64,000 nt of DNA from the IMG/VR virus record IMGVR_UViG_3300005264_000830, positions 65,405 through 129,404 of that record. The stretch is one strand, 5' to 3'. The position numbers and the translations under genes are program-made. The notes under the pieces were generated by a model. That model saw only the letters and a program-made list of their open reading frames with translations, did not search any database and was not told the DNA's origin. Each line of letters opens with the position of its first letter. Positions within the stretch are counted from its first letter, which is position 1. Origin of the DNA: a virus. Shown in pieces: positions 2 through 40,972 of this stretch.

Positions 2-3000
2 GTAGATTCTAATAATTTTTGTGGGACAATATCAGAATTTCGTATGTTAATAGGAGAAAGTGATTTAAAGTCGGGGTTCGTTCCTCCAATTGTTGAATAT
101 AGTATAGATACTACTTTAGGTGATAAGACCAACGCTAGATGGGTTAAGATAGATCTTTTGTGTGGTGATGGGAATGATAGAGCTTTACAATATGTGGGAA
201 TTTACCCAGATATAAGGTATCCATTTATACTTTCTGGAGGAAATAATTGTGAATGGATTTCACTAGGCAATAGGTTGTCAGATTATGAAAATATTAGTAG
301 AAATTTAGCCATAAATGCAAGTATTATCGGAGACGATTATATCAAAGAGAATTTTGAAAACGATTTGTCAGATGAGTGGTCAAATTTAATTAATACTACT
401 AGTAATATTAATGTCTCACATACAGACTTTGGTGGTACTCATCCAGACTCATTCTGGGCTAGTTATTATAATAATTTTAATACTTCAGGTTCATTTATAA
501 AACATGAAAACAATAAGCTTAAAGTGTATTTTTCAGATACTGAAAACAATGACTGCGGGTTTAATACCCCATCTTTTATATCAACAGATTGTACTTGTGA
601 AGTTCGTTTTAAACTTTCACATACTTCTAGAGTAGCTAGATTTTGGGTAGGATTAAGGGTCTATGCTGAGAATGGTGATTGGCTTGATGTAAGATTACAT
701 ATTTATGCAGGAATACAGTGGAGAGTAGACTATGGTAACGTAGGAGGAGGCTCTAGTTATTATTCCTATGGGAGTTTTGCTGGTGAATTGATAGGATTGA
801 AACTTAAAAGGGTTAATTCAACAATATATTCCTATTATTTAGACGATAACGGCTGGCATCAAGTACCTACTACAAGAACAGTAGATCATTTTTCAGCACA
901 AGAAATTTATTTCATGTTGTGGTTAAGTAAGGAGCAAGCGTATCCAGAAATTGAAGTTGAAGTAGATTATATAAGAGTAACAGAAGTTATCGATGAGACT
1001 ATTACTACTATTTGGGATACCACTGTGTCTGGTTTTGAAGGTAATGCTTTAAGTTATCATACTCCAGAGTTTATGCTAGATGAGGGTCCTATTTTTAGTC
1101 CTGAAATATTGTCAGCCGGCACACAAATACAATTTTTTGAGTATTATTACTATAATACTGGTGTTGGAGGAGCAGGGTTTTCTATAGAAGATAATGAGGG
1201 TAATGAAATAATAGGAGTCGCTACTACATCTCCAGGTTGGGCAATTAGTAGTGCAAATATTGGGTGGGAGAATGTTAATAGTGCTCCAGTTAGTGGAAAC
1301 TCAGGCTGGTACAGGGTAAAACTTACATTTGATTGGCAAAATGGGCTTTGTGATATTGACTGGGAGGATATATCAGGCGGGTATACTAATACTTATTCTA
1401 AGGAATTGAAGTATAATACCAATGTAAAAAGTTTTCATATAAGATCTACATTTGGTAATGCATGGGGGCTTGATTTTATAAATGTTATATTTGATAAAAT
1501 AACAATTATGCCATTATTGACTCATTTACTAGATTTTGAAAGATCAAATTGTATATCAGGAAATATTGAAGCCACTGGATTAGAGAGTTCTTGGGGCTGG
1601 CCTTCTTCAGAAAAATCTCCTACATTACTTCTAGATTTAGGAGAAATTTATTCTGTAGATAATTTTAAAATATACCATAGACCTGAACCAAGTGATTTTA
1701 GTTCTTACATGAATTATAACTACACAATCTCCAGCGCAACATCTATTTCAGGAACATTTGAAACTTTATTTAATATTACTGGGCATAGTGAATCAGAGTG
1801 GTCCCCATATCAAACCAGTTATGTTTTAGATGAGCCAAAAGATATGCGTATTGTACGGTTAGTTATAACTAGTTATAAAGTGCCTGATAATATACCAGTT
1901 ATACGAAAATATAATAGAGATGGTACTTCTGAATTGATAAAGGTAGATGGTGGGTTTTTAAGAGAATTCGAAGTATGGACCAGTGTTGGACAAGATCCAG
2001 TAAATAGTGAAGATCACCCTATAATTTGTATGGATTTATTAGATCAATTTAATTTAACTAACCATGCATTAGTAGGTCCTCAGGAGGCTAGAAAAGATGC
2101 CGATCGAGACGCTAAATTATGGTCTAATAATAATGATTTTTTTCAATATGCTGATTCTAATACTTTAGACCCGCACCAAGTCGCCTTTTCAGAAACTAAC
2201 GACTACTCGTATCCTTTCCAGTATGTTGAAGAACTTATGATTGATGATGGATCAAATGGTCCATTTTCATTAGGGTCTACAACTTTTTTACCTAGTGGAA
2301 ACTATGTTGTAAAATGGAATGTATTTAATTCTTTAGAGCCTGGAGATATAAGTATAAGTATAATAGGCCATACTATAATTAAAGTTTCTTCAGAGGGAGT
2401 TAGTACTTCTTGGATTCAGCAATCTAGCAATTTTAGATTAGAAACAGCTGGGTATTTTACTGTTCAGTTAGAGGCTAATAGAACAGGTACTGAAAATTGG
2501 GCAGTTAAAGAAATTTACTTCCAATCATATATGACAACTTCTAGATGGGTGGCTTTACGTAGAAATACTGCAACAAATTTTGAATGGACTCAAGGAGCAC
2601 CCTATGATACTTCTTTAGATAATCATGAGGGAGTTGATTATTTGAGTTATTTATCTCTATATTCAGCAGATAAACATCCTCCTACAGAATATAGCCATTG
2701 GTGGACATCTGTTATTAGTACATTAAGTACTGATTCTTTAAATCTAAAGAAATATAAACGTTCTCTGCGAATTGATTACCCAGATTCTTATACGGAAGAT
2801 AACATTAGATTTTTAGAGGGAGACTGTTTTGGCTTAGATAGTTCATTTTCTATTAAAGATGCTTTACATGTATGGTTCTTTATAAATGATGTGAATAAAT
2901 TAGATTTGGATTATGGAGGAATTGCTTTTGGAGTGTTTACTAGCTATGTTAAACCAAATTTACTTTGGGAAACCACCCATAATTCTGCTTCTTATTTTGC

Positions 3001-4111
3001 TCTTCCAGGAGAATTAGAAAAAAAACATGCAGGGTATGTAGATCATAGTGCAACTTCTCCAGGCGTTTATATGTGGTGGTTCAAAGATATGGATTTAAAA
3101 AGCGGATGGAATCAGTTGAAATTACGTTTTGATAAATACAACTCAGTGATTCCATTACCAGAAGAGAATACTGGAAAATTAAGTTCAGCTTTAAATTTTA
3201 GGAATCATTTAATGTCTTCATTCGGCATTGTATGTAGAGGTAAAGGAGAAGCTTTTTATATGTTACTAGATGATCTGAGGATCGAACGCAATTATTATTA
3301 TGATGAGGTAATGTATGGTAATAAAGGGCTATGTTTAACTTGGGAGGATTATGCTGAAATACCGTTAAGTGGGATAGACACTATGAAAGGTACCATCTCT
3401 ATGTGGTTGAAACTATATTCTAGTACTGCCGGTATAGACCATTTTAATGATTTGGCATCACGAACTCTATTTACTTTAATTGACACAGGGAATACTAGTA
3501 TATCTCTAAGTATACGATCCGGAAGTTGGTTTGAAATAGGGGTTGGTAATACTAAATCAGGGTATGTACCATTACACATTGATACAACTAAGGTAGCTGT
3601 AGGGGAGGCTGCCTTTAACATAGATGAAAAAGTACACTTAGCTTTAACTTGGAGTAAAGACTCTTCTGGGTTCGATAATAAAGACACAATACGATTATAT
3701 GTTAATGGAGAATTATATTTTAGAAGCAGCATATCTTGGGAACAAGGAGATAGTAAAAATGTATTACTAAGATTGGGGGGAGGAAATACATATTTAGCTA
3801 ATAATGATGATACTGATGGTAGTGCCATCTTTAGTGACGTAAAATTTTATAATTATTGTAAAACCGAGTTCAATATTAATGAATTATCTCCAGAGAAAGA
3901 ATTAAGTACAGTAGTTCCAAATGATCTTGTACAATTATCGATGAATAATGAAACCTTCTATAGTAGTAGAGACCAAGAATTACCTTTTGAGTTTAAAGAA
4001 GTAAATCCAGGAGAAATAATTCCTGTTTATGTGAGAGTAGATAAGAGTAATATGGATAAATTAGATAAAGTAACAGGATCAATAACTGTAGAATGGAAGG
4101 TACCTGTTTAA
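2..4111 (+). CDS. Large virion structural protein with beta-sandwich modules and a C-terminal LamG/concanavalin-like domain; 5' partial
   Basis: Frame is open from base 2 (VDSNNFCGTISEFR) into the listed Met at 44, so the gene starts before the window. C-terminal GTISMWLK...HLALTW...IRLYVNG...FSDVKFYN is LamG-like; LLLDLGEIYSVDNFKIY is discoidin-like. Confidence 0.7.
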   Translation, partial: VDSNNFCGTISEFRMLIGESDLKSGFVPPIVEYSIDTTLGDKTNARWVKIDLLCGDGNDRALQYVGIYPDIRYPFILSGGNNCEWISLGNRLSDYENISRNLAINASIIGDDYIKENFENDLSDEWSNLINTTSNINVSHTDFGGTHPDSFWASYYNNFNTSGSFIKHENNKLKVYFSDTENNDCGFNTPSFISTDCTCEVRFKLSHTSRVARFWVGLRVYAENGDWLDVRLHIYAGIQWRVDYGNVGGGSSYYSYGSFAGELIGLKLKRVNSTIYSYYLDDNGWHQVPTTRTVDHFSAQEIYFMLWLSKEQAYPEIEVEVDYIRVTEVIDETITTIWDTTVSGFEGNALSYHTPEFMLDEGPIFSPEILSAGTQIQFFEYYYYNTGVGGAGFSIEDNEGNEIIGVATTSPGWAISSANIGWENVNSAPVSGNSGWYRVKLTFDWQNGLCDIDWEDISGGYTNTYSKELKYNTNVKSFHIRSTFGNAWGLDFINVIFDKITIMPLLTHLLDFERSNCISGNIEATGLESSWGWPSSEKSPTLLLDLGEIYSVDNFKIYHRPEPSDFSSYMNYNYTISSATSISGTFETLFNITGHSESEWSPYQTSYVLDEPKDMRIVRLVITSYKVPDNIPVIRKYNRDGTSELIKVDGGFLREFEVWTSVGQDPVNSEDHPIICMDLLDQFNLTNHALVGPQEARKDADRDAKLWSNNNDFFQYADSNTLDPHQVAFSETNDYSYPFQYVEELMIDDGSNGPFSLGSTTFLPSGNYVVKWNVFNSLEPGDISISIIGHTIIKVSSEGVSTSWIQQSSNFRLETAGYFTVQLEANRTGTENWAVKEIYFQSYMTTSRWVALRRNTATNFEWTQGAPYDTSLDNHEGVDYLSYLSLYSADKHPPTEYSHWWTSVISTLSTDSLNLKKYKRSLRIDYPDSYTEDNIRFLEGDCFGLDSSFSIKDALHVWFFINDVNKLDLDYGGIAFGVFTSYVKPNLLWETTHNSASYFALPGELEKKHAGYVDHSATSPGVYMWWFKDMDLKSGWNQLKLRFDKYNSVIPLPEENTGKLSSALNFRNHLMSSFGIVCRGKGEAFYMLLDDLRIERNYYYDEVMYGNKGLCLTWEDYAEIPLSGIDTMKGTISMWLKLYSSTAGIDHFNDLASRTLFTLIDTGNTSISLSIRSGSWFEIGVGNTKSGYVPLHIDTTKVAVGEAAFNIDEKVHLALTWSKDSSGFDNKDTIRLYVNGELYFRSSISWEQGDSKNVLLRLGGGNTYLANNDDTDGSAIFSDVKFYNYCKTEFNINELSPEKELSTVVPNDLVQLSMNNETFYSSRDQELPFEFKEVNPGEIIPVYVRVDKSNMDKLDKVTGSITVEWKVPV

Positions 4112-4120
4112 GGAGAATAA

Positions 4121-6805
4121 ATGGCTCAATATAATTTAATAGACATTGGAACAATAGGTAGTAGTACTGTATCTGGCACCGGGAATAAAGCCCTATCTGT
4201 AGATGAATTACGGTTATTGTATGATAATAATACTACTACGTCTGGTATAGTTTTAGGACCATCTGATGTATTATACCTGGATATTGATATTGGTTATAGA
4301 ATAAAAATGGACGACATTAAATTATTTATATCTGTTTCAGGAGATAGAGAGGTTGCTCTTACTAATGTAGATTTTTATTATAAAAATGATGAATTAGATT
4401 CGTTTACACTGTGTGCTAAGGAACAAGATAGCACTACTTTTTACCCAATAGATACTCCAGATCTATTTGCTCCTAGATATTTTAGAGTGGTAATTAATAA
4501 TATTCAGGCAGATATCTATGAACTACAGTTAATGAATGATGATACCCAAGTATCTTTTGGCACAAGTGGGAATGATACTTTAGTTTTAGTGGATCAATTA
4601 AATGGGGGTTATACTTCGCTAGGTATATTTAATAATAGTGATATTGATACCGATCCAGTAACAGCTTATGTAATAGTAGATTACCAGAGGAACGCCTCTG
4701 ATTTTTATATAAAATTGGCTAGCTCTTTTGATGGGGAGTACTATGGTTTAAATGATGGTTTAATTCTTCAAGATAATGATTTAACTTCAATTGTAAGATG
4801 GAATAATGGTATATTTAATAACACAATGGTATACCCTGAAAATGAGAGTATTATTACTACCAACTATGAAATAGGGTATTATACTACTCCAATATTTTCT
4901 ATAGGGGACGTATTTGAAGCTACTTTTTTATTGTCTGATGTAACTACTATAAGTGGGTCTTCCATAACTTGGGATGAAGCTGCTCCTAGTGGCACAATAA
5001 AAGTTAGAAGCAGTAATACTTCTCCATTATCGTTTACTAAGTTATTTTGGCTGCATAAACGAAGCGATAATCGGATAGTGATACTTGAAGGAGATATGAC
5101 AACTGGCAATAAAATTGATACAAAAAAAGACTGTTTCGATGGGTCAACTCGTTACACCCCAAAGCGTGTCATATTTGATCGAGAGAGGGCTCATTATATT
5201 GTTTTATGTAAATATCAGTATAGTAGTACTTTGGAATGGAGATTACGAAAGTATGATTATAATACTGGAACAAATTTGTATAGTTCCACTAGTTCTACAT
5301 TTAATGATATAAGTACAAATATGGATGTTGATAAGCAAGGTAATGTGTGGGGAAGTGCTACTGGTAATAGATATTCTTTAGTGTGTTTTAACTATACTCT
5401 TGCCACTAGAACAACAATAAGGACAGAGGATTTAGCTTTTGTAACCGATTTATCTGCAAATAAAATCAGCTCTAGTTGTTGGTATACTGATAATGAAAAA
5501 AGTCAAGTATCTCATGTAGCTTCTGATGGTTCAGTTATGACTTCATTTAGTATGGCAAGCCCTACTTATATATGTTCAATATTAGATGGAGGTTGTTTTG
5601 TTGTGAACGCATCAGAAGCCGTTATAGTTAGATTTGATATTAATGGAGATCAGCTAAGTTATTTTCATTTTGATGCAGAAAAAACAATTAATGCTATTAG
5701 TTATGGCTTTAATAGTGCTAACGTTTTATTTAATATTGAAAGACTATGGTTAATTATTAACGCTTCATATGTAGTTCAATTGGATTTTTCAGGAAGAGAA
5801 ATAACTGAGACTATAGTACCATCTCCTACTGGAATTGAAGCCTTTCCAGGGGGATGTTTAGTGTATTCTTCTTATAATCATATAACTTATCAATTAGATA
5901 CCAATGGGGAGATAGTAAGAATATGGAATTTTAGTTCGTATCCTACTAAGGGTGGTATGCCTTTTCCAGTTATAATTGATTATAACGAGTTTTTAACTAT
6001 GGAAGAGATTGGTAATATTTTACCTGTTTCACACGATCCGTATTGGGGCACAGATTTAAATTGGGTAGAAGTTGTAAGATCTGGGTATAAGTTACCTCAT
6101 AAGAAGTACCACCAAGCTATGTTTAAAATTTTTCCTCAAATGTGTAAATTACCTCTAATTAATCCAGACGCAGAGACTGGAGATATTACAGGGTGGGATA
6201 AGAATTACTCTCGCTATGGGGATGATGATTTTAAAGCAGTAACCTCACCAATATGGGAAGGACAATATGTTTTTTCTATGATCCCTTTATCGACTATTTT
6301 TAATTACTACGTTTATCAAAAGATAGATATACAGTCAATAGATATAGATTATGAAGAACAAGAACGAGAGAAACTTGAATTTTATTTTAGATATGTTATG
6401 AAGGCGAGTAATACATACCAAAATTATTTAATTATAAAAGTAGTGCAACAAAATCAAGGTTATGATGATATTAAGACTACTACTTCTGCTGAACATAGTC
6501 ATACAAATTGGCAAACACATTATTTAAAAGATACTATATTATCAGAAACTAAGTATATTGAAATTAGGTTAGGTGGAAATCATTATTATAACAATAATTT
6601 TATTTATTTGGATGCAATGGAGATATATATATTTCGTTCTCCTACTTTAAATAGAGTAGTTATTCCAAAACCTATAAAAATTACAGAGTTACGACCACAA
6701 GAATATAAAAATATCTATATAAAAACAGAATTTCCAGAAGAAGCTGCTTATACAGAATATGAAACAAGATTAAGATGTTGGTGGGGAAATGAGGAGGAAA
6801 ATTAA
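4121..6805 (+). CDS. Virion structural protein with beta-propeller-like middle and a galactose-binding-like (NP.AETGD.TGW) domain
   Basis: 894-aa ORF; SD AGGAG upstream; VDKQGNVW and CWYTD propeller-like blades; LINPDAETGDITGW motif shared with 27467..28897. Confidence 0.6.
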   Translation: MAQYNLIDIGTIGSSTVSGTGNKALSVDELRLLYDNNTTTSGIVLGPSDVLYLDIDIGYRIKMDDIKLFISVSGDREVALTNVDFYYKNDELDSFTLCAKEQDSTTFYPIDTPDLFAPRYFRVVINNIQADIYELQLMNDDTQVSFGTSGNDTLVLVDQLNGGYTSLGIFNNSDIDTDPVTAYVIVDYQRNASDFYIKLASSFDGEYYGLNDGLILQDNDLTSIVRWNNGIFNNTMVYPENESIITTNYEIGYYTTPIFSIGDVFEATFLLSDVTTISGSSITWDEAAPSGTIKVRSSNTSPLSFTKLFWLHKRSDNRIVILEGDMTTGNKIDTKKDCFDGSTRYTPKRVIFDRERAHYIVLCKYQYSSTLEWRLRKYDYNTGTNLYSSTSSTFNDISTNMDVDKQGNVWGSATGNRYSLVCFNYTLATRTTIRTEDLAFVTDLSANKISSSCWYTDNEKSQVSHVASDGSVMTSFSMASPTYICSILDGGCFVVNASEAVIVRFDINGDQLSYFHFDAEKTINAISYGFNSANVLFNIERLWLIINASYVVQLDFSGREITETIVPSPTGIEAFPGGCLVYSSYNHITYQLDTNGEIVRIWNFSSYPTKGGMPFPVIIDYNEFLTMEEIGNILPVSHDPYWGTDLNWVEVVRSGYKLPHKKYHQAMFKIFPQMCKLPLINPDAETGDITGWDKNYSRYGDDDFKAVTSPIWEGQYVFSMIPLSTIFNYYVYQKIDIQSIDIDYEEQEREKLEFYFRYVMKASNTYQNYLIIKVVQQNQGYDDIKTTTSAEHSHTNWQTHYLKDTILSETKYIEIRLGGNHYYNNNFIYLDAMEIYIFRSPTLNRVVIPKPIKITELRPQEYKNIYIKTEFPEEAAYTEYETRLRCWWGNEEEN

Positions 6806-17304: not shown

Positions 17305-17305
17305 T

Positions 17306-18076
17306 ATGTCAGATTGTCAAGATCTGTATACATGGGTAGATGAAATATTTTATGAGTGGATAGATGAAGCCTACTTCGAGTTCGGCGAGTGTCCTACTGG
17401 CGTACTTTATCAAGTATGGAAAGATGCCGATTATGCTTATGCTGTGACTTCTTCTGGATTAGATATGTATGATATTAATTCTGCTAATAAAGTATCCTAT
17501 ATAAATAATAGAGGCGGTTTTACAACTATTTGGGGTAATGATTCTACAATTTATTTAGGTACTTCAGATGAAGGTATAAAGTATATAGATAAAACTACGT
17601 TTTCAGGCGGAGATTTAACCATTAATTTACAAGAGTACGATTACACTTATAATACAGCCTCCAATAGCATTAAATATTTACATGGGTACACAGATACTTT
17701 AGTTGCGATCACTGAGGATGCTATAGATATATTAAATAATAGTAGACATAGTTTTAAAAGTACAACGAGCGGTACTAATTTTACTAAATGCTTTATGACT
17801 TCTAAAGGTGAGTTATATTACATTACACAAGACTCACCAACAGATGGAATATCAAAAATTAATTCTGTATTATGTGATTGGATAGCTCCTGATACTTTTT
17901 ATGGGTCCGGTACTTCCTTTTTACCAGCTGAACAGGGAGTAAATGATATATTTATAACAGAAAATACTTCTTCTACTGGAGAAGATAATACAATTTTTGT
18001 TGCTACAACTAATGGAGCAGTTATACTAGATGAGGGTACCACAGAGTTTGATACATATTACAGTAAGGATGGATAA
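17306..18076 (+). CDS. Virion-associated protein, beta-propeller-like
   Basis: 256-aa ORF inside the structural run; blade-like motifs IYLGTSDEGI and IFVATTNGA. Confidence 0.5.
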   Translation: MSDCQDLYTWVDEIFYEWIDEAYFEFGECPTGVLYQVWKDADYAYAVTSSGLDMYDINSANKVSYINNRGGFTTIWGNDSTIYLGTSDEGIKYIDKTTFSGGDLTINLQEYDYTYNTASNSIKYLHGYTDTLVAITEDAIDILNNSRHSFKSTTSGTNFTKCFMTSKGELYYITQDSPTDGISKINSVLCDWIAPDTFYGSGTSFLPAEQGVNDIFITENTSSTGEDNTIFVATTNGAVILDEGTTEFDTYYSKDG

Positions 18077-18079
18077 TTT

Positions 18080-21000
18080 ATGTCACAATTAGCACTATCA
18101 GTAGAGTTTATTGATCTAGAGATGGCCGGAACCACTGAAGCTACCACTTCAGGTATGTTAACTAAGGGCCAGGATATATCGAACTGTGTTCCTTTTATGT
18201 CTCACTATTGTGAGAACGAAAGTTGGGATGGTCAGATGACAGATTACTGGTTTACTGATGTGGGAGGCCCAGCAATAAATGCTCGCCGAACTACACCAAG
18301 AGACAATACAATATATATAAAAGGGTATGTTGTAGAATTTGATCCAGAAAAAGTTAAAGTATATCAGGGAGATATACCTACTACTATAAATTATAATTCG
18401 GAGACTTCGGTAACTGTAACAACAGCAAGCGGGGCTTATGATACGTCGCGTACGGCCATGAAGTTTTATTATAGAGTTGATGGGTCTTCTAATCCTACAT
18501 ATCCTGGCCAGTTTTTGGTTAGGGGGCAAGTGGTTGACGGTACTTCTATTTCTTTTAATAAACATGTTAACGTCGCAAATACACATTATGGGCATTATTT
18601 TATGTTTGAGTCTATTGATGATGATTTTACTGTAGAACATAACTCTGGTACATTTACTGGAGGAATAGGTATTGAAGTACCTGTGTATGATTGGCACAAT
18701 TCATTTCTTATTTGTTCTAATTCTACTAGTTGGAATGGCACAGGTACTGATTACGCTACTATGCGTGCCTATTTATGGGGAAATTCTCGTATCCACATGA
18801 ACAGACAAAGTTCCTCTTACACTTGTTATTATAATACGCAACTTATTGAATTTAGTAATGAAGCAACTTTATCTGGAGTAAGGTATTGTCCTAAAATAAC
18901 TAATTATCATAGTATGAATACTACAACTACAGAGCGTACTCTTACACATAGAGAGAACCATATACAAAATTCTGATACTCTTATGATGTCAGTAACTCAA
19001 AATCCTACAAGAAATGCGTCTACAACTCAAAACAACCAAGAAGGTGCTTTTCATGCTATATGGTGTACCAATAGTGGGACTCAATATATAATTAAACGGG
19101 CTGTATCGACTTTTTATGCGTATCCTACTTATTATTTAATAGATTGGAATGGGCAATACCCTCAGTATCCTGATTTGGGAACAAATCCTGCACCAATAGC
19201 TTCAGGCACATCTCCAGTTAAATCGGTGGAGAATATAGTTACTAATATAGCAGAACATGTAGAGGTTGTACATCTATCTAAAGGACAAGATGTAGCAAAC
19301 TGTATTGTATTCGAATCTGGATTTTCTAATAAAACTAGTTCTTACGAACAATACTACCAGCATGAAGCTATGACATACTTTAGGGGTAATGAGTTATACA
19401 TAGAACGTGGTAATGAGGGTTGGGATAGGCATACCGATTTATCTGTAGTTGAGTTTTACCCTGATCAAGTCAGAGTTCAACAAGGGCAATTTATTATAGA
19501 CAGAAACGCTACAGAAACTACGGTAACTCTTGATTATGAGATAGACATCGAAAAAACTTTTTTAGTTTTCGGTCATTTTATGGGGGGTAGTGAAGGTCAG
19601 TGGGGTTATCATCAAGTTCTAGGTTATACTCAAAACACAACTACTCTTCATTTTTCTCGTGGAACGGCATCTACATATCCTATAATGGGTTCTTGGTATA
19701 TAGCTGAAGATTTAGGGGATAATTGGGACGTTAAACGTGTTAATACTGGATTTTCTTCTTTTAGTTCGTATTCGTATGAATGGCCGTGGCACGCTTCTAT
19801 ATATAATACATTTGTACTAATTTCTAATAAAATAGACACTACAAATGGTGCACCTATCTATTCTACTTGGAGAACCTTTAACCATGGCCCATTAGATTCT
19901 GGTAGAGTAGATAGATATAGTAATTCATATAATACTCAAGTAGGTATACAAGTAATTAAGTTTACCAATGATGATCGTATTAGAACTCATTACTCAGCAA
20001 GGAATTTAACTGGTACAGAAGAAAGTGAAACTTATACACCTTATACAGCCATGTCTGGTATGAATGTTACTGCTGTATTAAGTAGTTTAAATGGACAATA
20101 CAGAACTAATTCGACTAGTTCTAGTAGAAGTGTCTGCGCTTTTGCTAGAATACATTATGATGAAGATACAAATCAAGTAACTTTATCTAGAAATAATGGA
20201 TCTAATTATAGTGTAACTTCTGAGGCTACAATTTATACAGTAGCTTGGGAAGGATTCGAGTCAAATACTGGCGATAAAGAGATTGATAATTATGGATATT
20301 TCATAAAATCAATAGATAGACATACATACACCGGAAGTACTAGGCGTTGGCAAACACGGATAGAGAACGGACAAGATTTAAATAATTGTATTCCTATAAC
20401 TACGTGTGGTATAGGTGAAACAGCGGCAGCAGATTTGGAGCGTATGTTTTTTACTCCGTGGATATATCCTGACTTAGGGAGAATACATTATGAAGCTTAT
20501 TGGACACCAAATAATCCAGGCATAGATATGGCACTACAGTTATTAGAATTTGACCCAGAACAAGTTAAGGTACAAAGAGGCTATACTTACTTATGGAATG
20601 GGGCAGCTACTGCTACGAATGTGATTGAAGAAGTAGATATTACAAAAACCTTTATGATGCATTATGTGTATGTAAGTGATAATGTCGGCACAACTTTTGG
20701 TGGAGCGTCTATAGCAGGTAAGATTAATACATCTACTGAATTACATTTTGAGCGCGGTAATACAACTGGTAGTACTATGATTACCTGGTATGTAGTTGAG
20801 TGTCTTCAAGATCAATGGGTAGTTCAACATGGGGAGATTAATAATTCTAATACGACTTATTATACTTGGGACTGCATTGATATGCCAGAGCATAGATCAA
20901 TTACTTGGATGTCTTACGCACAAGAACAGACTCAGTTTTATCCCTCTTATTGTATGTTTAGAACATATGCGAATCACGATCAACGCGGTATATATCAAGT

Positions 21001-21625
21001 AAGGGGAAATAGACAATCTTCTGGCTCAGAAGTTGAACGAATGAATTTTTCTGGTATTACTTTTAATGAAAATTTAGGGATATATGTAGACCATGTACAT
21101 TTTTATTTCGGCACTTCGGCTACATCTGTTACTGTTGATTTAAATAGAGAGTATGATATGAACCGTACTGTATTTTGGGCAGGGCAGGCACAATCGATGA
21201 TGCGCACTAATACTACCAGTACTTCAGTTGGGCCACAACATGGTTATTTTAAAGCTGAATTTCAAGATTCAACTACGTTATTGGTTACAAGAAATGTGTC
21301 TTCTCCAGCGTATGAGTCTTGGGGGCACGTATATTTAATAGAGATACCTTTACCTACTTATAAAGTAGCTGGCGTGGTAAGAGAAAAAGGTAGTTTTGTT
21401 GAGAGAACCCTCCATTTACATAGGTCTGACACTGGAGAATTTATGGCCAAAACTACTTCCAGTGGTATCGATGGTACGTATGAGTTTCTTACTACATATA
21501 GTGGGTCTACTTATGTAGTTTGTTTTGATGATGTTGAGGGAACACAATATAATGGGTTAATAGAAACAGAAGTATTTCCTACAGTCCTTACAGGAACATG
21601 GGCAGCTGACCAAGGATGGGTGTAA
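18080..21625 (+). CDS. Virion structural protein with three tandem internal repeats and the shared C-terminal adaptor-like domain
   Basis: GQD..NC and VVEFDPE.V.V..G each occur three times; C-terminal domain similar to those in 21941, 25973 and 27467. Confidence 0.65.
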   Translation: MSQLALSVEFIDLEMAGTTEATTSGMLTKGQDISNCVPFMSHYCENESWDGQMTDYWFTDVGGPAINARRTTPRDNTIYIKGYVVEFDPEKVKVYQGDIPTTINYNSETSVTVTTASGAYDTSRTAMKFYYRVDGSSNPTYPGQFLVRGQVVDGTSISFNKHVNVANTHYGHYFMFESIDDDFTVEHNSGTFTGGIGIEVPVYDWHNSFLICSNSTSWNGTGTDYATMRAYLWGNSRIHMNRQSSSYTCYYNTQLIEFSNEATLSGVRYCPKITNYHSMNTTTTERTLTHRENHIQNSDTLMMSVTQNPTRNASTTQNNQEGAFHAIWCTNSGTQYIIKRAVSTFYAYPTYYLIDWNGQYPQYPDLGTNPAPIASGTSPVKSVENIVTNIAEHVEVVHLSKGQDVANCIVFESGFSNKTSSYEQYYQHEAMTYFRGNELYIERGNEGWDRHTDLSVVEFYPDQVRVQQGQFIIDRNATETTVTLDYEIDIEKTFLVFGHFMGGSEGQWGYHQVLGYTQNTTTLHFSRGTASTYPIMGSWYIAEDLGDNWDVKRVNTGFSSFSSYSYEWPWHASIYNTFVLISNKIDTTNGAPIYSTWRTFNHGPLDSGRVDRYSNSYNTQVGIQVIKFTNDDRIRTHYSARNLTGTEESETYTPYTAMSGMNVTAVLSSLNGQYRTNSTSSSRSVCAFARIHYDEDTNQVTLSRNNGSNYSVTSEATIYTVAWEGFESNTGDKEIDNYGYFIKSIDRHTYTGSTRRWQTRIENGQDLNNCIPITTCGIGETAAADLERMFFTPWIYPDLGRIHYEAYWTPNNPGIDMALQLLEFDPEQVKVQRGYTYLWNGAATATNVIEEVDITKTFMMHYVYVSDNVGTTFGGASIAGKINTSTELHFERGNTTGSTMITWYVVECLQDQWVVQHGEINNSNTTYYTWDCIDMPEHRSITWMSYAQEQTQFYPSYCMFRTYANHDQRGIYQVRGNRQSSGSEVERMNFSGITFNENLGIYVDHVHFYFGTSATSVTVDLNREYDMNRTVFWAGQAQSMMRTNTTSTSVGPQHGYFKAEFQDSTTLLVTRNVSSPAYESWGHVYLIEIPLPTYKVAGVVREKGSFVERTLHLHRSDTGEFMAKTTSSGIDGTYEFLTTYSGSTYVVCFDDVEGTQYNGLIETEVFPTVLTGTWAADQGWV

Positions 21626-21939
21626 TGCCAGATTTTGATTTTATACAAGATAGGAATACTTTTCCAATATCTACAGAACTCGATTTTAATTTTGGAGCAG
21701 GACAAATAAATGTTTTAGCAGGAAACTCTAATGTAATTACAGCGATTTGGGCAGAACCAGATGCAGGCAGGTCTTCAGGAAAGATGCATGTTACTTCTTA
21801 TGGAGAAGGAGCAGCATTTTCTATATTAGATTTAAAAACTAAAATATTATATGACAGATATACTGTTACAGTAAAAGGCAGAGCTAACGAGACATTGAAG
21901 CAAGAAGATCCAAAAGATTTAGTTGGGGGAAGTGAATAA
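21625..21939 (+). CDS. Small virion-associated hypothetical protein
   Basis: Start placed at the TAATG overlap (MPDFDFIQDRN...) rather than 21616. Confidence 0.55.
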   Translation: MPDFDFIQDRNTFPISTELDFNFGAGQINVLAGNSNVITAIWAEPDAGRSSGKMHVTSYGEGAAFSILDLKTKILYDRYTVTVKGRANETLKQEDPKDLVGGSE

Positions 21940-21940
21940 A

Positions 21941-23806
21941 ATGACAGATAAAGTTTCTTATAGAATAGATTATACGAAAGTAGATTCTGATTTAGAAGAT
22001 TTTCCAGTAGATATATGGATAACCACTGATACAGTACCTGCATCTATGTTTAATTCTTTTTTTACTAATGATACTTTTGATCCTACAGAGTTTAAAGTAA
22101 TAAATCCAGAGACTGATGCAGAGTTGTATACTGAAATATCTTATTACGATTATAGTTCTAAAGAAATGATGTTACATGTAAAGGTTCCTGATGTATATTC
22201 AGATAAATATTCTTATGTGGATATTGTACCTACTATTACTGGTTCTAATATATATGTAAGTGAAACTGACACTTGGCAAGAAACTACAACTGTTTCTGGG
22301 GATGATTTTACTGGAGACGACATAGATTTTGATCACACACTGTGGTTTATGAGAAAAGCCTTTTACCGTGACGAAGACTACATTAGGATATATAATAATA
22401 AATTAAAATTTAATATAGAAAACACAACAGACGATCAAGGGATGTGGTTTTATTCTACTTTACGTTTCTTTGGTAATTTTGATGTACGAGTAGATTTTGA
22501 ATTTATTGGTGCAGGGTCTAGATGGGCACAGAGAATGGATATGTTTACTACAGAAATGAATGCCTATATAGGGAGATATAATATCTTTGCTGATGGGTAT
22601 TATAGATCCGAGATAACTGGAGAAACTTTGGTTCATGGGGGACCTAATGATAGTAGCGGTAAATTTAGAATAGCACGTGTAGGCACAACATTAACTACTT
22701 ATTATTGGGGAGGCTCTAGTTGGGTTAACTATGTAGAGTCAACTAGTTGTCCTTTGACGGAATTTAGGGTATTATTATCAGTAAATACATGGCATAACGC
22801 TACTAGTTTAGGCTCTACTTTCGATAATTTTACATTTACTGCGGATACTGTTAAATATCAACCTTCAAGCACAGTATGGGATGAGCACTATAAAGCTGTT
22901 TATCATATGTCACAAGACCCTTCTGCTGGAACTAATAGTATTTTAGACTCTACTTATAATGGATGGAACTCTTCTCCTTATGGTTCAATGACTTCATTAG
23001 ATGTGGTGGATGGATCAATCGGAAAAGCTTTGGATTTTGATGGTTTAGATGATTACATAGATATAGGTTATCCTTTATATATGGGAAACCCTGATTTACA
23101 CCAAACTATTGAGTTTGTTAGTAACAATGATGGTGTGATGGTGGGCACAGAGAGAACCTCATCTGCTACTGGAGATTCACAACTAAGTGTGGGTAGTAAT
23201 GGGACTTTAGTCTATAGAATAGATAATTCAACTAGTGCTCCACATACTGAGTGGATAACTTCTAGTGGTGGGGCTGACATTTCAGAATTCAATTATTATG
23301 CGTTGAGCGCAGTCGGTGTCAGTAATTCTTATGATATGATAGTAAACGACATAAAAGAGAATGTTGTTTATGATTTTGATGAAGGTAATGAAGAACATTC
23401 AAATGTTATGGTAGCAAGACATCGTAATTACACTTACAGTGATGTTTACTATGATATGCAAGTACAGGAAATACGTTTTTCAGATATTACACGTTCAGAT
23501 GCTTGGTTAAAGGCCTCCGGTCATTCTATTAAAGGTAGTTTAGTAGAGATTGTGTACCCTACAGTATGCGAAGGGACTGTTAGAGATGGAAGCGGAACAA
23601 CTCTATCTGGCACAGAGGTGAATTTACATAGACGTGTTGATGGTACTTTGGTAGGAAGAACAACTACTACCTCCTCTGGTACTTTTTCTGTAGGTTCTAT
23701 ATACGCAGAAGATCATTATATAGTAGCGTTACCTTTGGATGATTCTTTTAATGCACTTATTTATGATTATATTAATCCTACGTATAGTGGGGAGCTTAAT
23801 GTATAA
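21941..23806 (+). CDS. DUF2341-like + LamG structural protein, paralogous to the modules of the 3499-aa fibre
   Basis: KVDSDLEDFPV, LYTEI..YD...KEMMLHVKVP, VWDEHYKAVYHMSQDPS, GKALDFDG.DDYID and RS.AWLKAS motifs; start placed at ATG 21941. Confidence 0.7.
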   Translation: MTDKVSYRIDYTKVDSDLEDFPVDIWITTDTVPASMFNSFFTNDTFDPTEFKVINPETDAELYTEISYYDYSSKEMMLHVKVPDVYSDKYSYVDIVPTITGSNIYVSETDTWQETTTVSGDDFTGDDIDFDHTLWFMRKAFYRDEDYIRIYNNKLKFNIENTTDDQGMWFYSTLRFFGNFDVRVDFEFIGAGSRWAQRMDMFTTEMNAYIGRYNIFADGYYRSEITGETLVHGGPNDSSGKFRIARVGTTLTTYYWGGSSWVNYVESTSCPLTEFRVLLSVNTWHNATSLGSTFDNFTFTADTVKYQPSSTVWDEHYKAVYHMSQDPSAGTNSILDSTYNGWNSSPYGSMTSLDVVDGSIGKALDFDGLDDYIDIGYPLYMGNPDLHQTIEFVSNNDGVMVGTERTSSATGDSQLSVGSNGTLVYRIDNSTSAPHTEWITSSGGADISEFNYYALSAVGVSNSYDMIVNDIKENVVYDFDEGNEEHSNVMVARHRNYTYSDVYYDMQVQEIRFSDITRSDAWLKASGHSIKGSLVEIVYPTVCEGTVRDGSGTTLSGTEVNLHRRVDGTLVGRTTTTSSGTFSVGSIYAEDHYIVALPLDDSFNALIYDYINPTYSGELNV

Positions 23807-25973
23807 AGCAAGACCTCCAATTAATAATATACCGTTTAAATTTGGCTCTTCTGGGTATAGTCCGCCGGATTTTAATGCCGTAAATTTTTCTTTCCCTGCT
23901 AGGTTTAGTGATTTAAAGGCAGCTATTGTAGGCAGTAATTTACAAAGAGATTATCTAAAGCACTGCGAAACTTATGTATTAGGATATAATAGTAATAATG
24001 TACAAATATTAAGACATAGTTGCCTTTATGGAGGAATACGAGATTTACAAGTTAATTTAGATGTTATAGCTAATTTTTTTAATTTATCCGGATATATTAA
24101 ATCAACTTTATATGGATATATCGATTTAAATGAGTCTTTACGCGGTTGGGGGGAAGGTACTTTAGATTTACAGGGGGTGTTGAAGTCATGGAATCGAGAA
24201 GTGGTAAAGAATCTACCTGTTTATATGAAGCAAGGGGAAACTTCTCAATTAGATTTATCTAAATATGTAGATATATTTCAATCTTCATATACAGACCTGA
24301 ATAAATTAATTAAAGGGTGGTCAACAGGTAATATAAGAGATTTAGTTAATACTGTAAAACCATGGTATTCTGCTAATACAGATCTTTCTGAATATTTGAG
24401 GCCGACCACACAACAAACATCTGATTTAATTTTAGATATATTTAAAATCTGGCAAACTAAACAATATAATATCAATGCGATGTTGCACGGCTGGCAAGAG
24501 ATGCAGTTACAAAAGATTATACAGGTATTGCATACAAAAGATTTGCCGGCGAGTATAAGGGCAACTTATTTAAACAATTTAGGAGTGTGGTTATATGCAA
24601 TACAGCCTGTGGATATTTCTGCTAATTTAATGGCTTGGGCAGCTATGAATCTACCAGTATATATTGAAGATGGACCATATGCGGGAGACTTGCCTAAGTA
24701 TATCTATGGTATTGACTCTGTAGATCTTAGGGCTAGATTACTAGTTAGAAAAGCTTTTGAAGTGGCCAAAGATTTAAATTTTAGATTGACAAATTTACAA
24801 GAAAGAAATTTATCTATACATTTAAATACAATTCAATATACTGATTTAAATATATATTTACTTTCTTCAAGACAGTTAGTGGATCTACAAGTTAAAATAT
24901 ATCCAAAAATAGTTCATATTAAACATCGTATTAATATAGATTTTTTAGAACATAGGGATCTAGCAGCGGTAATAAATTTTTCTTGTTTTAGTTCGATGTT
25001 TCGTAATTTAGCTTTTACTATAGATGTAAAACAAAGTAAGGATTTATCTATGTATATCTACGGAACTGATGAAGCGAATATAAGTAATTTAAGATTTAGT
25101 ATCAACACTTCTGATTATATGACACAGAATACGGTTGTATCACAATATTTAAATATAAAAAGTCCTACGTCATACACTACCTTAAAATATAAAAAGAAAT
25201 CCACTGTGTGTACTATTAATACTATTTCTGTACTTAGTGCTAATATAGGTAGAAGTTATCTTGATTTATCTTTAAATATAGATGGCCAGTATATACATAA
25301 AGATCTAGGTATTATTATTCGACCATATATAAACAGGCATTATGAATCTCCTTCTGTTTTGCAAAAATTCATTATATTGAAATTAAAAAATAATCAAGAA
25401 GATTTTAGACGTTATGTGGAACTAACTTTTAATAGTTATGTAAACACTTATTATTATTTTTCTGGAAATCGGAAAGTGTATAGGATGTATAGAGATGACC
25501 ATTGGGTGGTACAAGTAGAAGGAAGTAAGTTGTTACCTGTAGGGCAAGGCTTTGAAAAAACAAAAGTACGAAGAAAATATATTTTTAATTTGAAAAATTA
25601 TACTTCTATTGATGAAGCAATACGAGACATGGTAGACAGGGTTACTCAACTTAAGAGTGTCGATTTATCAGCTTATATAGTCGGTGTTAATGATAGATTA
25701 AAAAACTTACCTATAAATATATTTGCGAGAAGAGTTTATAAATCTAATAGGATATTATCAGCGCTGATAAAAGGTGGAACCACGCAATATAGAACCTTAT
25801 CTTCGCGAATTAATGCTGTATTGACCACCGCTACTTATAATCTATCTTCTACTATTATAGCAGTTAGTTATAAAAGTACCGTAGGTCGAGCAGATTTTAA
25901 TTTTATAGGTACAGGGGATGTAATGCCGCCAGCCGAGGATGCAGATTTTATTTTTAAATTGGAGAATGATTAA
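23799..25973 (+). CDS. Virion structural protein with periodic xDL/NL repeats
   Basis: SD GGAG before ATG 23799 (MYKARPP); DL/NL recurs at roughly regular spacing; proline/aromatic peptides at both termini. Confidence 0.55.
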   Translation: MYKARPPINNIPFKFGSSGYSPPDFNAVNFSFPARFSDLKAAIVGSNLQRDYLKHCETYVLGYNSNNVQILRHSCLYGGIRDLQVNLDVIANFFNLSGYIKSTLYGYIDLNESLRGWGEGTLDLQGVLKSWNREVVKNLPVYMKQGETSQLDLSKYVDIFQSSYTDLNKLIKGWSTGNIRDLVNTVKPWYSANTDLSEYLRPTTQQTSDLILDIFKIWQTKQYNINAMLHGWQEMQLQKIIQVLHTKDLPASIRATYLNNLGVWLYAIQPVDISANLMAWAAMNLPVYIEDGPYAGDLPKYIYGIDSVDLRARLLVRKAFEVAKDLNFRLTNLQERNLSIHLNTIQYTDLNIYLLSSRQLVDLQVKIYPKIVHIKHRINIDFLEHRDLAAVINFSCFSSMFRNLAFTIDVKQSKDLSMYIYGTDEANISNLRFSINTSDYMTQNTVVSQYLNIKSPTSYTTLKYKKKSTVCTINTISVLSANIGRSYLDLSLNIDGQYIHKDLGIIIRPYINRHYESPSVLQKFIILKLKNNQEDFRRYVELTFNSYVNTYYYFSGNRKVYRMYRDDHWVVQVEGSKLLPVGQGFEKTKVRRKYIFNLKNYTSIDEAIRDMVDRVTQLKSVDLSAYIVGVNDRLKNLPINIFARRVYKSNRILSALIKGGTTQYRTLSSRINAVLTTATYNLSSTIIAVSYKSTVGRADFNFIGTGDVMPPAEDADFIFKLEND

Positions 25974-27466
25974 TGGAAATATTGAGAGTAGGAAAAATAC
26001 GGAAATACACTACTATTATGTCAGCAGTTGATGCAGCTTCTGTAGGAGATGTAGTATTAATCGATGAAGGGATATATACAGAGAGTATCAAAATAACTAA
26101 AGCAATACATATAGTCGGAAATACTTTGTACCCTGGAAAAGGGCAAGTAATTTTAGCAGGGTTTGATGATGCGAGTAACGGCTGGGATACTACATTATAT
26201 TTTCAAAATATATCAGGCTCATATACTATGTATTTTGAAAATATACACATTAGTCCAATGAATTGGCCGGTAGGTGATATAGATGAGTGTTTTTTTATCG
26301 TAAACTCATGGGATATTGATTTTGTATTTAACAGGTGTATCTTTGATAGTGGCCGCAATAATGTATTTTTGTTCAAAGGGTACAATTCCTCGGTAAACTC
26401 AATAACTATGAATAATTGTAGAGGTATATTTAAAGAGGTTATAGATTACCCCTCATCAGGACCGCAGCACTTTAATAATGGTTTGAGATACGTTCTTCAA
26501 TATTTTAATAAATGTATATTTAATACTCAAATAGATTTTTCTCATCAATATGTTCCTGTGCCAAGTGTTAGCGACTATGTAATTGACAGAGATCAATATG
26601 GGTATGGACCTCATTATGGCACAAACGCAAATTTGTTCAATTTATACTATTTTAAAGGAACAGTTACTTCTGAAGTTCCTTCTTCTACTCTTGTAGATAA
26701 TGTTGTATTAGATAAGTTTATAAAGCTACCAGAGATTGTCGTTTCTAATAATGATTTAACTGCCACGGTGTCTAAGAATAATGCCTACGTTGATTATGCT
26801 GTAAGAACTACTGTTGGAAGATCTGATGGTAAATGGTATTGGGAAGTTATTATGAATAGTGTATATCAATATAGTAAGGATAGATGTGGTATAAGTTTAG
26901 TCACAGCCTCTATCAATCAATCTATAGGAGATACTGTATATAGTTGGGGGTTTGCCCCTACGACTGGAAAATTCTATTATAATGGGGTTTGTATAAGCAC
27001 TGTAGACCCATGTTTTCCTGGAGATATTATAGGAATCGCTTTAGATATGTTTAATGGTAATGTGTGGTTTTCAAAAAATGGAACTTGGATGTTAAATGGA
27101 GATCCTAGTTTGGGAGTCAATCCGGTATTTACAGATATAAAAGGGGTAGTTTATCCTTCTATTTCATTATATAGTAATGAATTTTATGATTCTTCGGCAG
27201 ATATAGTATTTGCCATACCTGATTTAACTTATACTATTCCGACTGGGTTTAATTTCTATGGCACAAGTACGATTTGGAGAGTTAAATGTATAAGTGCAGT
27301 AACAAATGAAGTGTTAGGTAGTACACTTTCTGATGCTTTAACTCAAGAGTATTTTTTAGAAACAACATATAGTGGGGAACACTTTGTTATATGTGAGGAC
27401 GTAACTGAGGTGCCTGAGTATAATGATCTAATCTTAGGAAGAATGATTCCAAAGGAGTTAATTTAG
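25973..27466 (+). CDS. Putative receptor-binding protein: N-terminal beta-helix-like domain, SPRY domain, adaptor-like C-terminus
   Basis: YTTIMSAVDAASVGDVVLIDEGIYTE is a beta-helix cap; GKWYWEV, GDIIGIALD, WFSKNG and VYPSISL are SPRY motifs. Confidence 0.7.
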   Translation: MEILRVGKIRKYTTIMSAVDAASVGDVVLIDEGIYTESIKITKAIHIVGNTLYPGKGQVILAGFDDASNGWDTTLYFQNISGSYTMYFENIHISPMNWPVGDIDECFFIVNSWDIDFVFNRCIFDSGRNNVFLFKGYNSSVNSITMNNCRGIFKEVIDYPSSGPQHFNNGLRYVLQYFNKCIFNTQIDFSHQYVPVPSVSDYVIDRDQYGYGPHYGTNANLFNLYYFKGTVTSEVPSSTLVDNVVLDKFIKLPEIVVSNNDLTATVSKNNAYVDYAVRTTVGRSDGKWYWEVIMNSVYQYSKDRCGISLVTASINQSIGDTVYSWGFAPTTGKFYYNGVCISTVDPCFPGDIIGIALDMFNGNVWFSKNGTWMLNGDPSLGVNPVFTDIKGVVYPSISLYSNEFYDSSADIVFAIPDLTYTIPTGFNFYGTSTIWRVKCISAVTNEVLGSTLSDALTQEYFLETTYSGEHFVICEDVTEVPEYNDLILGRMIPKELI

Positions 27467-36229: not shown

Positions 36230-36376
36230 ATGGAAACTATTGAAAGTACAGAGAAGGGTTTGTTAGATACGCTGCATAAATGTATTATGTGTAACTCTAC
36301 CGCATATAAAGTTGAGGATGGCAGGTACGAATGTAGTAAATGTAGTTTTGAATGGAGAGTATTAAGTTGTGAATAA
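36230..36376 (+). CDS. 48-aa zinc-ribbon protein (not in the ORF track)
   Basis: [48 protein letters not shown]; SD AGGAG; fills the gap before dnaJ. Confidence 0.65.
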
Positions 36377-40471: not shown

Positions 40472-40499
40472 TTTACAAACTAAAAATATGTATTATATT
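40472..40499 (+). promoter_or_regulatory. Sigma70-like promoter TTTACA-N16-TATATT facing into the attC array
   Basis: Closely matches the 28902 element (TTKACAAAC-N8-TGTATTATATTA). Confidence 0.55.
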
Positions 40500-40513
40500 A
40501 TGTAATAAAAGTA

Positions 40514-40564
40514 AAATAATACCATAGTTCACCGGCTTTGTCCGGTGCAACTGATTGGTTATAA
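40514..40564 (-). repeat. attC-like site 1 (50 bp identical to site 2)
   Basis: Minus strand TTATAAC CAATCA GTTGCACC GGACAAAGCC GGTGAAC TATGGT ATTATTT; R' reads ATT instead of GTT. Confidence 0.7.
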
Positions 40565-40579
40565 GAAAGGAGTACTAGC

Positions 40580-40880: not shown

Positions 40881-40921
40881 TAGGTTCTCCTTTTAGTGCT
40901 GTAAAAAAATTAATTAATTAA

Positions 40922-40972
40922 AAATAATACCATAGTTCACCGGCTTTGTCCGGTGCAACTGATTGGTTATGA
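40922..40972 (-). repeat. attC-like site 2
   Basis: TCATAAC CAATCA GTTGCACC...GGTGAAC TATGGT ATTATTT; begins 5 nt after the stop of 40978..41175. Confidence 0.7.

Follow-up and report, generated by a model that had tools for sequence, protein, structure and literature searches.

We analyzed a 64,000-nucleotide window of viral DNA (positions 65405–129404 of IMG/VR record IMGVR_UViG_3300005264_000830) in which large virion-type proteins, encoded at window positions 2–27466, are strongly enriched in the four-residue word T-x-S-G (TxSG, x being any residue). The nine open reading frames (ORFs) of this block contain 46 TxSG words among 108 Ser-Gly (SG) pairs, and comparison with related contigs indicates that the word is under selection, which appears to be specific and to act at the protein level. 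The best single explanation, which we put forward tentatively, is that T-x-S-G serves as the acceptor for a phage glycosylation machinery; its candidate enzymes are a pair of GT4 glycosyltransferases and an adjoining island of sugar genes in the same window. Coordinates are those of the window unless stated otherwise.

Enrichment and specificity of the word

Within-protein shuffling of the nine ORFs yielded 6.5 ± 2.6 TxSG words against the 46 observed (z ~15; maximum of 18 in 1000 shuffles), and with the fibre-like protein excluded, 20 words were observed against 3.1 ± 1.7. These counts bear out a first-pass annotation of this DNA, which had estimated about 46 of about 110 SG pairs by hand with the same numbers per ORF. 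It had assigned the motif to seven of ten structural genes; seven do carry it, out of nine ORFs counted here. The other 39 ORFs of the window contain TxSG at 4 of 51 SG pairs (shuffle expectation 2.8), in line with the poverty noted earlier for the non-structural part (about 4 of about 45). Among all gapped three-residue words of the form X.YZ, T.SG was the most enriched in the nine ORFs (Poisson P = 1e-24). Over the virion block of the whole record, the word occurs 73 times against 15.5 expected (4.7-fold), and outside the fibre 44 times against 12.6 (P = 1.7e-6 against a baseline-corrected expectation).

Repeats were collapsed by masking the motif, comparing the flanks and joining sites by single linkage at a 99.9% null threshold. 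The 46 window sites then formed 21 clusters (P = 4.9e-6 against 6.5; P = 2.0e-3 with the expectation inflated 1.57-fold), and the 73 sites of the genome formed 45 clusters, 36 of them singletons (P = 8.5e-10 against 15.5; P = 1.1e-4 with 1.57-fold inflation). At this strict threshold, the enrichment over composition-shuffled proteins therefore survives the collapse of repeats. The largest cluster comprises 20 sites and corresponds to the fibre repeat DTPxxYSGxEGxYLxSTxSGIxW; as had been remarked at first pass, many fibre copies (20 of 26) belong to this repeat, and another 20 window sites lie outside the fibre.

All three fixed positions of the word are specific. Generic turn propensity would lift single-substitution variants as well, so their lack of enrichment supports this specificity, both in the nine ORFs (observed/expected: S.SG 3/6.1, T.TG 6/6.2, T.AG 1/2.9, T.DG 3/5.0, T.NG 7/4.3 and T.SA 2/3.7) and in the virion block of the record (ratios of 0.67 for S.SG, 1.30 for T.TG, 0.31 for T.AG, 1.29 for T.DG, 0.89 for T.NG, 0.76 for T.SA and 0.95 for T.SN). 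Words of the same composition (T.GS, S.TG, S.SG and G.SG) occurred at about the expected frequency. The flanks show a preference close to T-T-[I/V/A]-S-G-[T/I/V]. At the T, S and G positions of the motif, codon choice does not depart from the background, and 31 different middle codons occur; the constraint therefore lies on the protein, as the first-pass annotation had held; a DNA-level cause was ruled out on the same codon evidence.

As a control set, we used 80 random IMG/VR loci (896 ORFs, 292,575 aa). They contained 196 TxSG words against 138.6 expected (1.41-fold), and their T/S/G-rich ORFs contained 140 against 89.1 (1.57-fold). Thr occupies position −2 of 9.8% of the control SG pairs; among the 64 control proteins with at least 8 SG pairs this fraction had a median of 0.10 and a maximum of 0.40, whereas it reaches 0.46–0.63 in four proteins of the window. 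The SG pair itself is enriched 1.67-fold here and 1.19–1.27-fold in controls. The TxSG bias is not general to phage or fibre proteins.

The proteins of the block are mostly unannotatable, with almost no PHROG matches (a few to "virion structural protein") and family matches to Laminin_G_3, F5/8 type C, SPRY and CarboxypepD_reg-like domains. At 2–4111 (+ strand, as are all long ORFs of the window, whose GC content is ~33%) lies the C-terminal part (1369 aa) of a virion protein of 3766 aa; this part has TxSG at 2 of 15 SG pairs and matches Laminin_G_3 and, weakly, F5/8 type C domains; the two motifs reported for this "first gene" are present, and the ORF starts upstream of the window. It is followed by an 894-aa virion protein (4121–6805; 3 of 8 SG pairs) with no Pfam or PHROG family and with orthologues in four related contigs (G001–G004), and by the 3499-aa fibre-like protein (6805–17304; 26 of 52; Laminin_G_3, E = 1.6e-25). 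Next comes a 256-aa protein (17306–18076; 3 of 4, and up to 6 words in orthologues) with a blade-like repeat, [AG]T.[ST]G[LIV].[YIV], and a weak beta-propeller Pfam match below cut-off. An 1181-aa all-beta protein (18080–21625; 6 of 13) comprises three ~360-aa modules and a C-terminal beta-sandwich. A 627-aa protein with a CarboxypepD_reg-like C-terminal domain (21923–23806; 5 of 8) and a 497-aa SPRY-domain virion protein (25973–27466; 1 of 4, located in a C-terminal TTYSG domain) complete the set, and the ORFs at 21616 and 23739 have the word at 0 of 1 and 0 of 3 SG pairs. Within the repeat region of the fibre ORF, ARAGORN calls a tRNA-Arg(tct) at 13560–13638, which is probably a false positive; Rfam gave no match anywhere in the window.

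More virion genes are located in the upstream half of the record. Two adjacent giant ORFs there (G000:C1:5331-31009; 4530 and 4028 aa, with tape-measure-like segments; L001 and L002) are without TxSG enrichment, at 3 against 1.87 and 0 against 1.46 expected.

The AlphaFold model of the 1181-aa protein (pLDDT 87.7) consists of beta-sandwich modules. A fold search with it returned nothing beyond generic matches of low TM-score (beta-sandwich, adhesin and PCSK9 V-domain), and no function was assigned. When 211 TxSG words of this family were mapped, the Ser of 103 fell in strand-to-strand loops of at most 6 residues, which hold 16.6% of residues; a further 52 lay in loops of other kinds, 32 in strands, which make up 49.4% of residues, and 13 in helices. 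In this model, and for this one protein family, the motif lies mostly in short strand-to-strand loops. A model of the 627-aa protein, built from a 5-row alignment, was discarded (pLDDT 31.6).

Relatives, turnover and the glycosyltransferase pair

CheckV rates the 129,404-bp linear record (G000), of which the window is the second half, as ~49% complete. Relatives were recovered by an alignment-based IMG/VR scan, a scan with a single protein having found none, and the other IMG/VR contigs compared are designated G001–G004, G006 and G010–G014. To judge from their sequences, the related contigs, of 115–296 kb, show a jumbo-phage lineage. Neither megablast of 17306–27466 nor tblastn queries with the 1181-aa protein, with a conserved virion protein of 525 aa or with a fibre fragment gave a match in 50,697 phage records, so that no cultured relatives of the tail proteins were found there.

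Whole-contig counts exceeded expectation in G001 (77 against 20.8), G002 (64 against 14.4), G003 (61 against 16.5) and G004 (76 against 24.0). In five related contigs pooled, the virion homologues contained 266 words against 65.0 expected and the non-virion proteins 13 against 7.2; T-x-S-G is thus restricted to virion proteins. Nearly all of the 54 homologues of the 1181-aa protein are enriched about threefold. Their 226 motifs occupy 53 alignment columns, some recurrent (29, 21, 14 and 14 of 49 sequences) and many sporadic, and recurrent columns hold either the whole word or an unrelated tetrapeptide (TISG versus TIEE; TSSG versus VSAS).

Orthologues about 50% identical keep 14 of 33 and 16 of 34 sites, where independent conservation of the residues predicts 11–13%; pooled control triplets were kept in 18 of 102 and 17 of 106 cases (Fisher P = 0.008 and 0.0004 against the TxSG sites). 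At 25–40% identity, orthologues keep 3 of 35 and 1–2 of 31 sites (with a tolerance of ±4 residues, and with alignment error that may hide some conservation), yet carry 21–22 sites, on contigs enriched to the same degree (64 against 14.4 and 61 against 16.5). Selection thus seems to act on how densely the word occurs rather than on where, with sites turning over between distant relatives.

A search with 171 fibre residues against 1.84 billion representative proteins returned 211 relatives at E ≤ 1e-3. The best 150 of these contain 1335 TxSG words against ~145 expected, with Thr at −2 in 45–53% of SG pairs. After masking of the DTP repeats, 149 fibre-like proteins (window fibre excluded) retained 580 words against 94.1 (6.2-fold), and every single-substitution variant lay at 0.62–1.52. 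Some weaker matches carry the DTP repeat without the word (…LRVNxxxxGLEF), which indicates that this repeat fold does not require T-x-S-G. Fibre contigs of the TxSG type were recovered at 6 loci by the alignment scan, and a degenerate DTPTTYSG DNA pattern occurred in 22 stretches on 17 contigs. By these comparisons, the motif recurs in every related contig examined, and the case for it is stronger than the first-pass annotation had made it, with specificity at each fixed position, selection and a wide spread across the group.

The first-pass annotation had pointed to glycosyltransferases at 39–50 kb, and family matches and hydrophobic-segment counts substantiate it: the enzymes exist, are soluble and are accompanied by a nucleotide-sugar pathway without export machinery. 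Core GT4 glycosyltransferase "a" (GT4a; 39161–40471, + strand) is a soluble protein of 436 aa that matches Pfam Glycos_transf_1 (8.9e-11) and PHROG 2170 (3.7e-47). Its only sequence match in the PDB is the chlorovirus glycosyltransferase B736L, and its relatives are encoded on 82 IMG/VR stretches. In 80 GT4 neighborhoods (10 kb), TxSG was not enriched (84 against 73), which fits its restriction to virion proteins. Core GT4 "b" (GT4b; 42867–45059, +) has 730 aa and includes an intein with a LAGLIDADG domain, its orthologues in G003 and G004 having 372–373 aa. Inteins are, to our knowledge, unusual in glycosyltransferases, and this one hints that the enzyme matters to the phage. In G002, the two GT4 ORFs measure 850 and 1198 aa, lengths that point to additional insertions. 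Between the two genes lies a divergent ThyX-like protein of 187 aa (42301–42864, +; Pfam Thy1, 8e-6; no PDB sequence match), in which the ThyX RHR motif looks altered by eye; G011 has a canonical, full-scoring ThyX (2.6e-62) in the same position between its GT4s. In the 1.8 kb between GT4a and the ThyX-like gene (40472–42300), the longest ORF does not exceed 84 aa, and neither an Rfam match nor a tRNA is present.

The soluble glycan island (45056–54102, +) follows, as defined by Pfam and NCBIfam matches. It encodes, in order of start position, a GT2 (45056), a UDP-GlcNAc 3-dehydrogenase-like oxidoreductase (45751), a second GT2 (46779), two hexapeptide acetyltransferases (47681 and 48316), two ORFs without a family match (48804 and 49762), a nucleotidyltransferase-like protein (50670), an Asp/Glu (cysteate-type) racemase, a methyltransferase (51703), a DegT aminotransferase (52479) and a KdsC-like phosphatase (53605). 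The racemase is split into N- and C-terminal family halves on overlapping ORFs of 99 and 114 aa (51080–51379 and 51366–51710), which may reflect a frameshift, a pseudogene or a true split. The genes at 45056, 45751, 52479 and 53605 are conserved in relatives; those at 46779, 48316, 48804 and 49762–51703 have no or only partial matches there. The two GT4s and the island enzymes each have at most one hydrophobic segment, and flippase, polymerase and lipid-carrier-priming families are absent from the Pfam and NCBIfam matches. The GT4 pair is 61–70% identical in G002–G004, where tail proteins are 23–58% identical, and is thus among the best-conserved proteins compared; GT4a alone shows 64–70% identity in these contigs, 53–58% in G010 and G011 and 39% in G012.

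Motif and GT4 pair occur together in G000, G002, G003, G004, G010, G011 and G012. G010 (complete, 296 kb; GT4a 53% identical) has 36 words against 6.8 in T-rich ORFs of at least 300 aa, and G011 (234 kb; 58%) has 28 against 8.3; both have 40–46 genes in common with the record, are without the 1181-aa protein and show a weak fibre match or none. In the T-rich ORFs of G010 (L262–L276), V.SG (3.2-fold), S.SG (2.3-fold) and A.SG (2.2-fold) are also raised, as if the first position were relaxed. G012 (159 kb, 83% complete) shares six genes with the record at BLAST E ≤ 1e-5, namely RecA, both GT4s (39% and 43–44% identical), DegT, PolA and RNR, and no tail protein common to the two was found at that threshold. 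Large T-rich proteins adjoining its GT4 pair nevertheless contain 20 words against 4.4, with the consensus TTVSG[VIL]. Of the few further genes that G012 has in common with other motif-bearing relatives, those scanned are of replication type: a dNMP kinase, an RlaP-like nucleotidyltransferase and a primase. No TxSG enrichment is seen in G013 (complete, 145 kb; 7 against 10.2) or G014 (64 kb; 7 against 4.8), whose GT4-like genes are only 24–32% identical. G006, recruited by weak domain matches and essentially unrelated, served as a negative control: the motif is absent, as are island homologues by BLAST. Five of the DTPTTYSG contigs were newly searched for GT4; two matched, and the three without a match are only 13–21% complete.

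Replication genes lie downstream of the virion block, with the sugar island embedded among them: sliding clamp, RecA, DnaB, primase, DnaJ (36369–37160), RuvC, PD-(D/E)XK nuclease, intein-bearing PolA, RNR and Hsp70 (DnaK; 63476–64000, truncated by the record end). The family A DNA polymerase (57227–60313) is split by an intein that includes a LAGLIDADG domain (Pfam Intein_splicing and LAGLIDADG_3), and the primase of G012 likewise bears an intein. A 516-aa ORF at 54309–55859 fuses N6/N4 DNA methylase and Mrr-type restriction endonuclease domains and has a homologue in G011 only.

A proposed acceptor sequon and its alternatives

We propose that T-x-S-G may be a short recognition motif that selection maintains on outward-facing proteins of tail, baseplate and fibres in a broad uncultured jumbo-phage group, and that its most likely reader would be a soluble glycosylation machinery encoded by the phage itself. 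In the cytoplasm, one or both core GT4 enzymes (GT-B fold; 39161 and 42867) would attach a first sugar to the Ser, possibly the Thr, of motifs that mostly sit on short loops joining beta strands. The variable island enzymes, including two GT2s, acetyltransferases, a methyltransferase and a 3-amino/acetamido sugar pathway, would then extend or decorate the glycan, and the tail appendages would end up with a sugar coat that varies between strains. The analysis shows the specificity of the motif, its restriction to virion proteins, the selection on it, its loop location in one protein family, the presence and solubility of the enzymes and the joint occurrence of enzymes and motif. We infer from sequence that these enzymes act on proteins and that the motif is their acceptor, and likewise the identity of the modified residue and the role of the coat. 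The full version of this proposal, in which the conserved GT-B pair reads the motif and coats fibres and baseplate and the variable island makes the glycan strain-specific, is held more guardedly still than the sequon itself.

Several observations weigh against this proposal. The signal is in part structural inheritance: a single repeat accounts for 20 of the 26 fibre sites, the C-terminal TTYSG domain present in both the 1181-aa and the 497-aa protein accounts for three sites, and in the 256-aa family the blade pattern fixes T and G while the Ser position varies among S, D, T, E and K. The "unrelated sequence contexts" of the first-pass annotation are accordingly fewer than it implied, although the cluster counts, 21 for the window and 45 genome-wide, still exceed expectation. 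That result depends on the threshold, since single linkage at a laxer 99% chains 42 of the 46 sites. A TSSGTF hairpin is also found in unrelated control phages (L050), and the structural mapping concerns secondary structure in the one well-modelled family. The word is not avoided in non-virion proteins (13 against 7.2), where a promiscuous sequon reader might impose avoidance.

The link to the enzymes has its own weaknesses. Tetrasphaera phage TJE1 encodes a single GT4 that is 39% identical over 94% of the query, yet shows no clear TxSG enrichment (5 against 2.5 in the structural module; 5 against 4.7 over all ORFs); seven of the 50,697 phage records matched the GT4 by tblastn, with no mycobacteriophage among them. 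A clade member without the GT4 pair was not found among the contigs compared, the motif-bearing G001 ending before the GT region. The GT4 pair belongs to the core genes of the same broad group, of which G012 is perhaps a very distant member, so the association of motif and pair, which appears real from these genomes, is confounded with descent.

The alternative that survives best, although we consider it somewhat unlikely, is a lineage-specific structural or assembly element that stays unmodified, a preferred way to end a strand and make a tight turn (Thr capping, Ser-Gly turn). Duplicated domains and modules swapped between tail genes would have spread it, and the island would serve something else. 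The shared fibre repeat, C-terminal domain and T..G[LIV] blade of the 256-aa protein favor it, as do the 49% of mapped sites in short strand-to-strand loops, the TSSGTF-type hairpins of control phages, the preference of x for I, V and A, expected of an inward-facing strand residue, and the weak 1.4–1.6-fold bias of random phages. However, turn physics is universal and a 4–10-fold bias is found in this group only, and the chemically similar turns T.DG, T.NG, S.SG, T.TG and D.SG are unenriched. The DTP repeat folds elsewhere without the word, positions turn over in distant relatives while density is kept, and in G012 the bias resides in proteins without detectable similarity to those of the window.

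It is unlikely, in our estimate, that T-x-S-G has some other clade-specific reader and that the GT4 pair and island glycosylate phage DNA or a small molecule. Candidate readers are a modifying enzyme in the unseen genome half, given that only ~49% of the genome is on record, a fibre chaperone or assembly factor such as the phage Hsp70 or DnaJ, and a host-surface ligand. The similar GT4 of motif-poor TJE1 speaks for such a division of labor. So does the genomic setting, which also counts against the sequon: the GT4 pair stands in the replication module, between a PD-(D/E)XK nuclease and the ThyX-type gene, and a dNMP kinase is common to these phages. Such surroundings would also fit DNA glycosylation, which keeps DNA in play as an acceptor. 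Hypermodification of DNA by phage glycosyltransferases is known, as described in the accessible text of two sources (bioRxiv 10.1101/2023.12.21.572611; PMC13326640). In the latter, arabinosyl-5-hydroxycytosine in RB69 and DLP3 starts from a thymidylate-synthase (ThyA) homologue; in the former, clusters of a methyltransferase (MT), 5mYOX and a glycosyltransferase (GT) start from a methyltransferase plus a dioxygenase.

The precursor enzymes named for these routes were not found in the five records searched (G000, G004 and G010–G012), but some other route is conceivable. No ThyA homologue (PF00303) was found in G000 (~49% complete), G004, G011 or G012, and G010 alone of the five records has one; this protein scores 1.5e-109 to the family model, as either an ordinary synthase or a hydroxylating homologue might. 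G011, where a full-length copy lies between the GT4s, and G012 each have a full-scoring ThyX; the window copy is divergent. The TET/JBP dioxygenase profile PF12851 matched nothing in the records and nothing in the controls either, so this negative carries no weight. Among the scanned genes that G012 shares with the motif-bearing phages, only the GT4 pair and DegT are candidate protein modifiers, and DNA modification would leave the protein motif unexplained. Finally, an artefact of Thr/Ser/Gly-rich composition and internal repeats is extremely improbable: the proteins are rich in T, S and G, a lax threshold joins 42 of 46 sites and 20 sites are one repeat, but the shuffles preserve composition, the rearranged words T.GS, S.TG, S.SG and G.SG stay near 1, the excess persists outside the fibre and in 45 strict clusters, and the bias recurs in unrelated proteins of G012.

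Significance and comparison with known systems

Phage virion glycosylation has so far been described from a few cultured phages, with no acceptor motif given in the accessible text of those reports. A literature search for "TXSG" as a whole word returned only unrelated papers, and searches of the phage-glycosylation literature returned nothing on such a motif. Should the full proposal be right, no earlier system of sequon-directed cytoplasmic protein O-glycosylation would have been described in bacterial viruses, and sequence alone would suffice to predict virion glycosylation. If T-x-S-G is an acceptor, metagenomic data would reveal which phage proteins are glycosylated and at which sites. 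It would then be worth testing whether the GT4 pair can serve as a portable means of site-directed O-glycosylation in the cytoplasm of bacteria, and the fast-changing sugar islands of jumbo phages would gain a function, for example in masking or tuning tail fibres. Even if that proposal is wrong, a selected four-residue word with position turnover across hundreds of fibre proteins needs an agent.

In Bacteroidota, general protein O-glycosylation acts outside the cytoplasm on a lipid carrier, with the acceptor D-(S/T)-(A/I/L/V/M/T). It resembles the present case in having a short O-glycosylation sequon scattered over many unrelated proteins, and differs in its lipid-carrier machinery, which is not among the family matches here. 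The Bacteroidota sequon itself was considered and rejected, since it is not enriched in the virion proteins (114 against 132.1 ± 11.0).

Phage DNA hypermodification of the T-even type shares with the window soluble phage glycosyltransferases and sugar-nucleotide genes in or near a nucleotide-metabolism module. In the accessible descriptions, it starts from a ThyA homologue or from a methyltransferase plus a dioxygenase, whereas ThyA was not found in four of the five records searched here.

TibC, a cytoplasmic GT-B-type heptosyltransferase, modifies Ser, not Thr, of TibA, including Ser-313 in QNSGG, according to the available text of PMC4358343. As described there, the TibC/AAH system acting on TibA and AIDA-I would be a close parallel to the proposed one: a soluble GT-B-type enzyme hyperglycosylates Ser residues in loops of a repetitive all-beta protein, and one mapped site has a Ser-Gly context that T-x-S-G resembles. 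It differs in that the candidate enzymes here are GT4, that its motif lacks Thr at −2, and that its targets are autotransporter beta-helices, whereas many folds carry the word here. GT9-type heptosyltransferases (PF01075) were found in none of five records (G000–G004), the controls having matched; the present system is therefore not a member of the TibC/AAH system.

Mycobacteriophages such as Che8, Corndog and Myrna glycosylate capsid and tail-tube proteins with their own enzymes, as the available text of PMC12363180 describes (see also Freeman et al. 2023, Cell Host Microbe 31:1216, as cited in the accessible part of PMC12582341). Compared by description, the two cases differ in their targets, capsid and tail-tube proteins there and candidate tail, baseplate and fibre proteins here, and in that the available text mentions no four-residue sequon. 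They are alike in gene content, the window holding phage-encoded glycosyltransferases and sugar-nucleotide genes without export machinery, as in virion glycosylation of the mycobacteriophage type. The likeness would extend to the principle itself, here proposed from sequence alone: phage-encoded glycosyltransferases that decorate the phage's own virion proteins.

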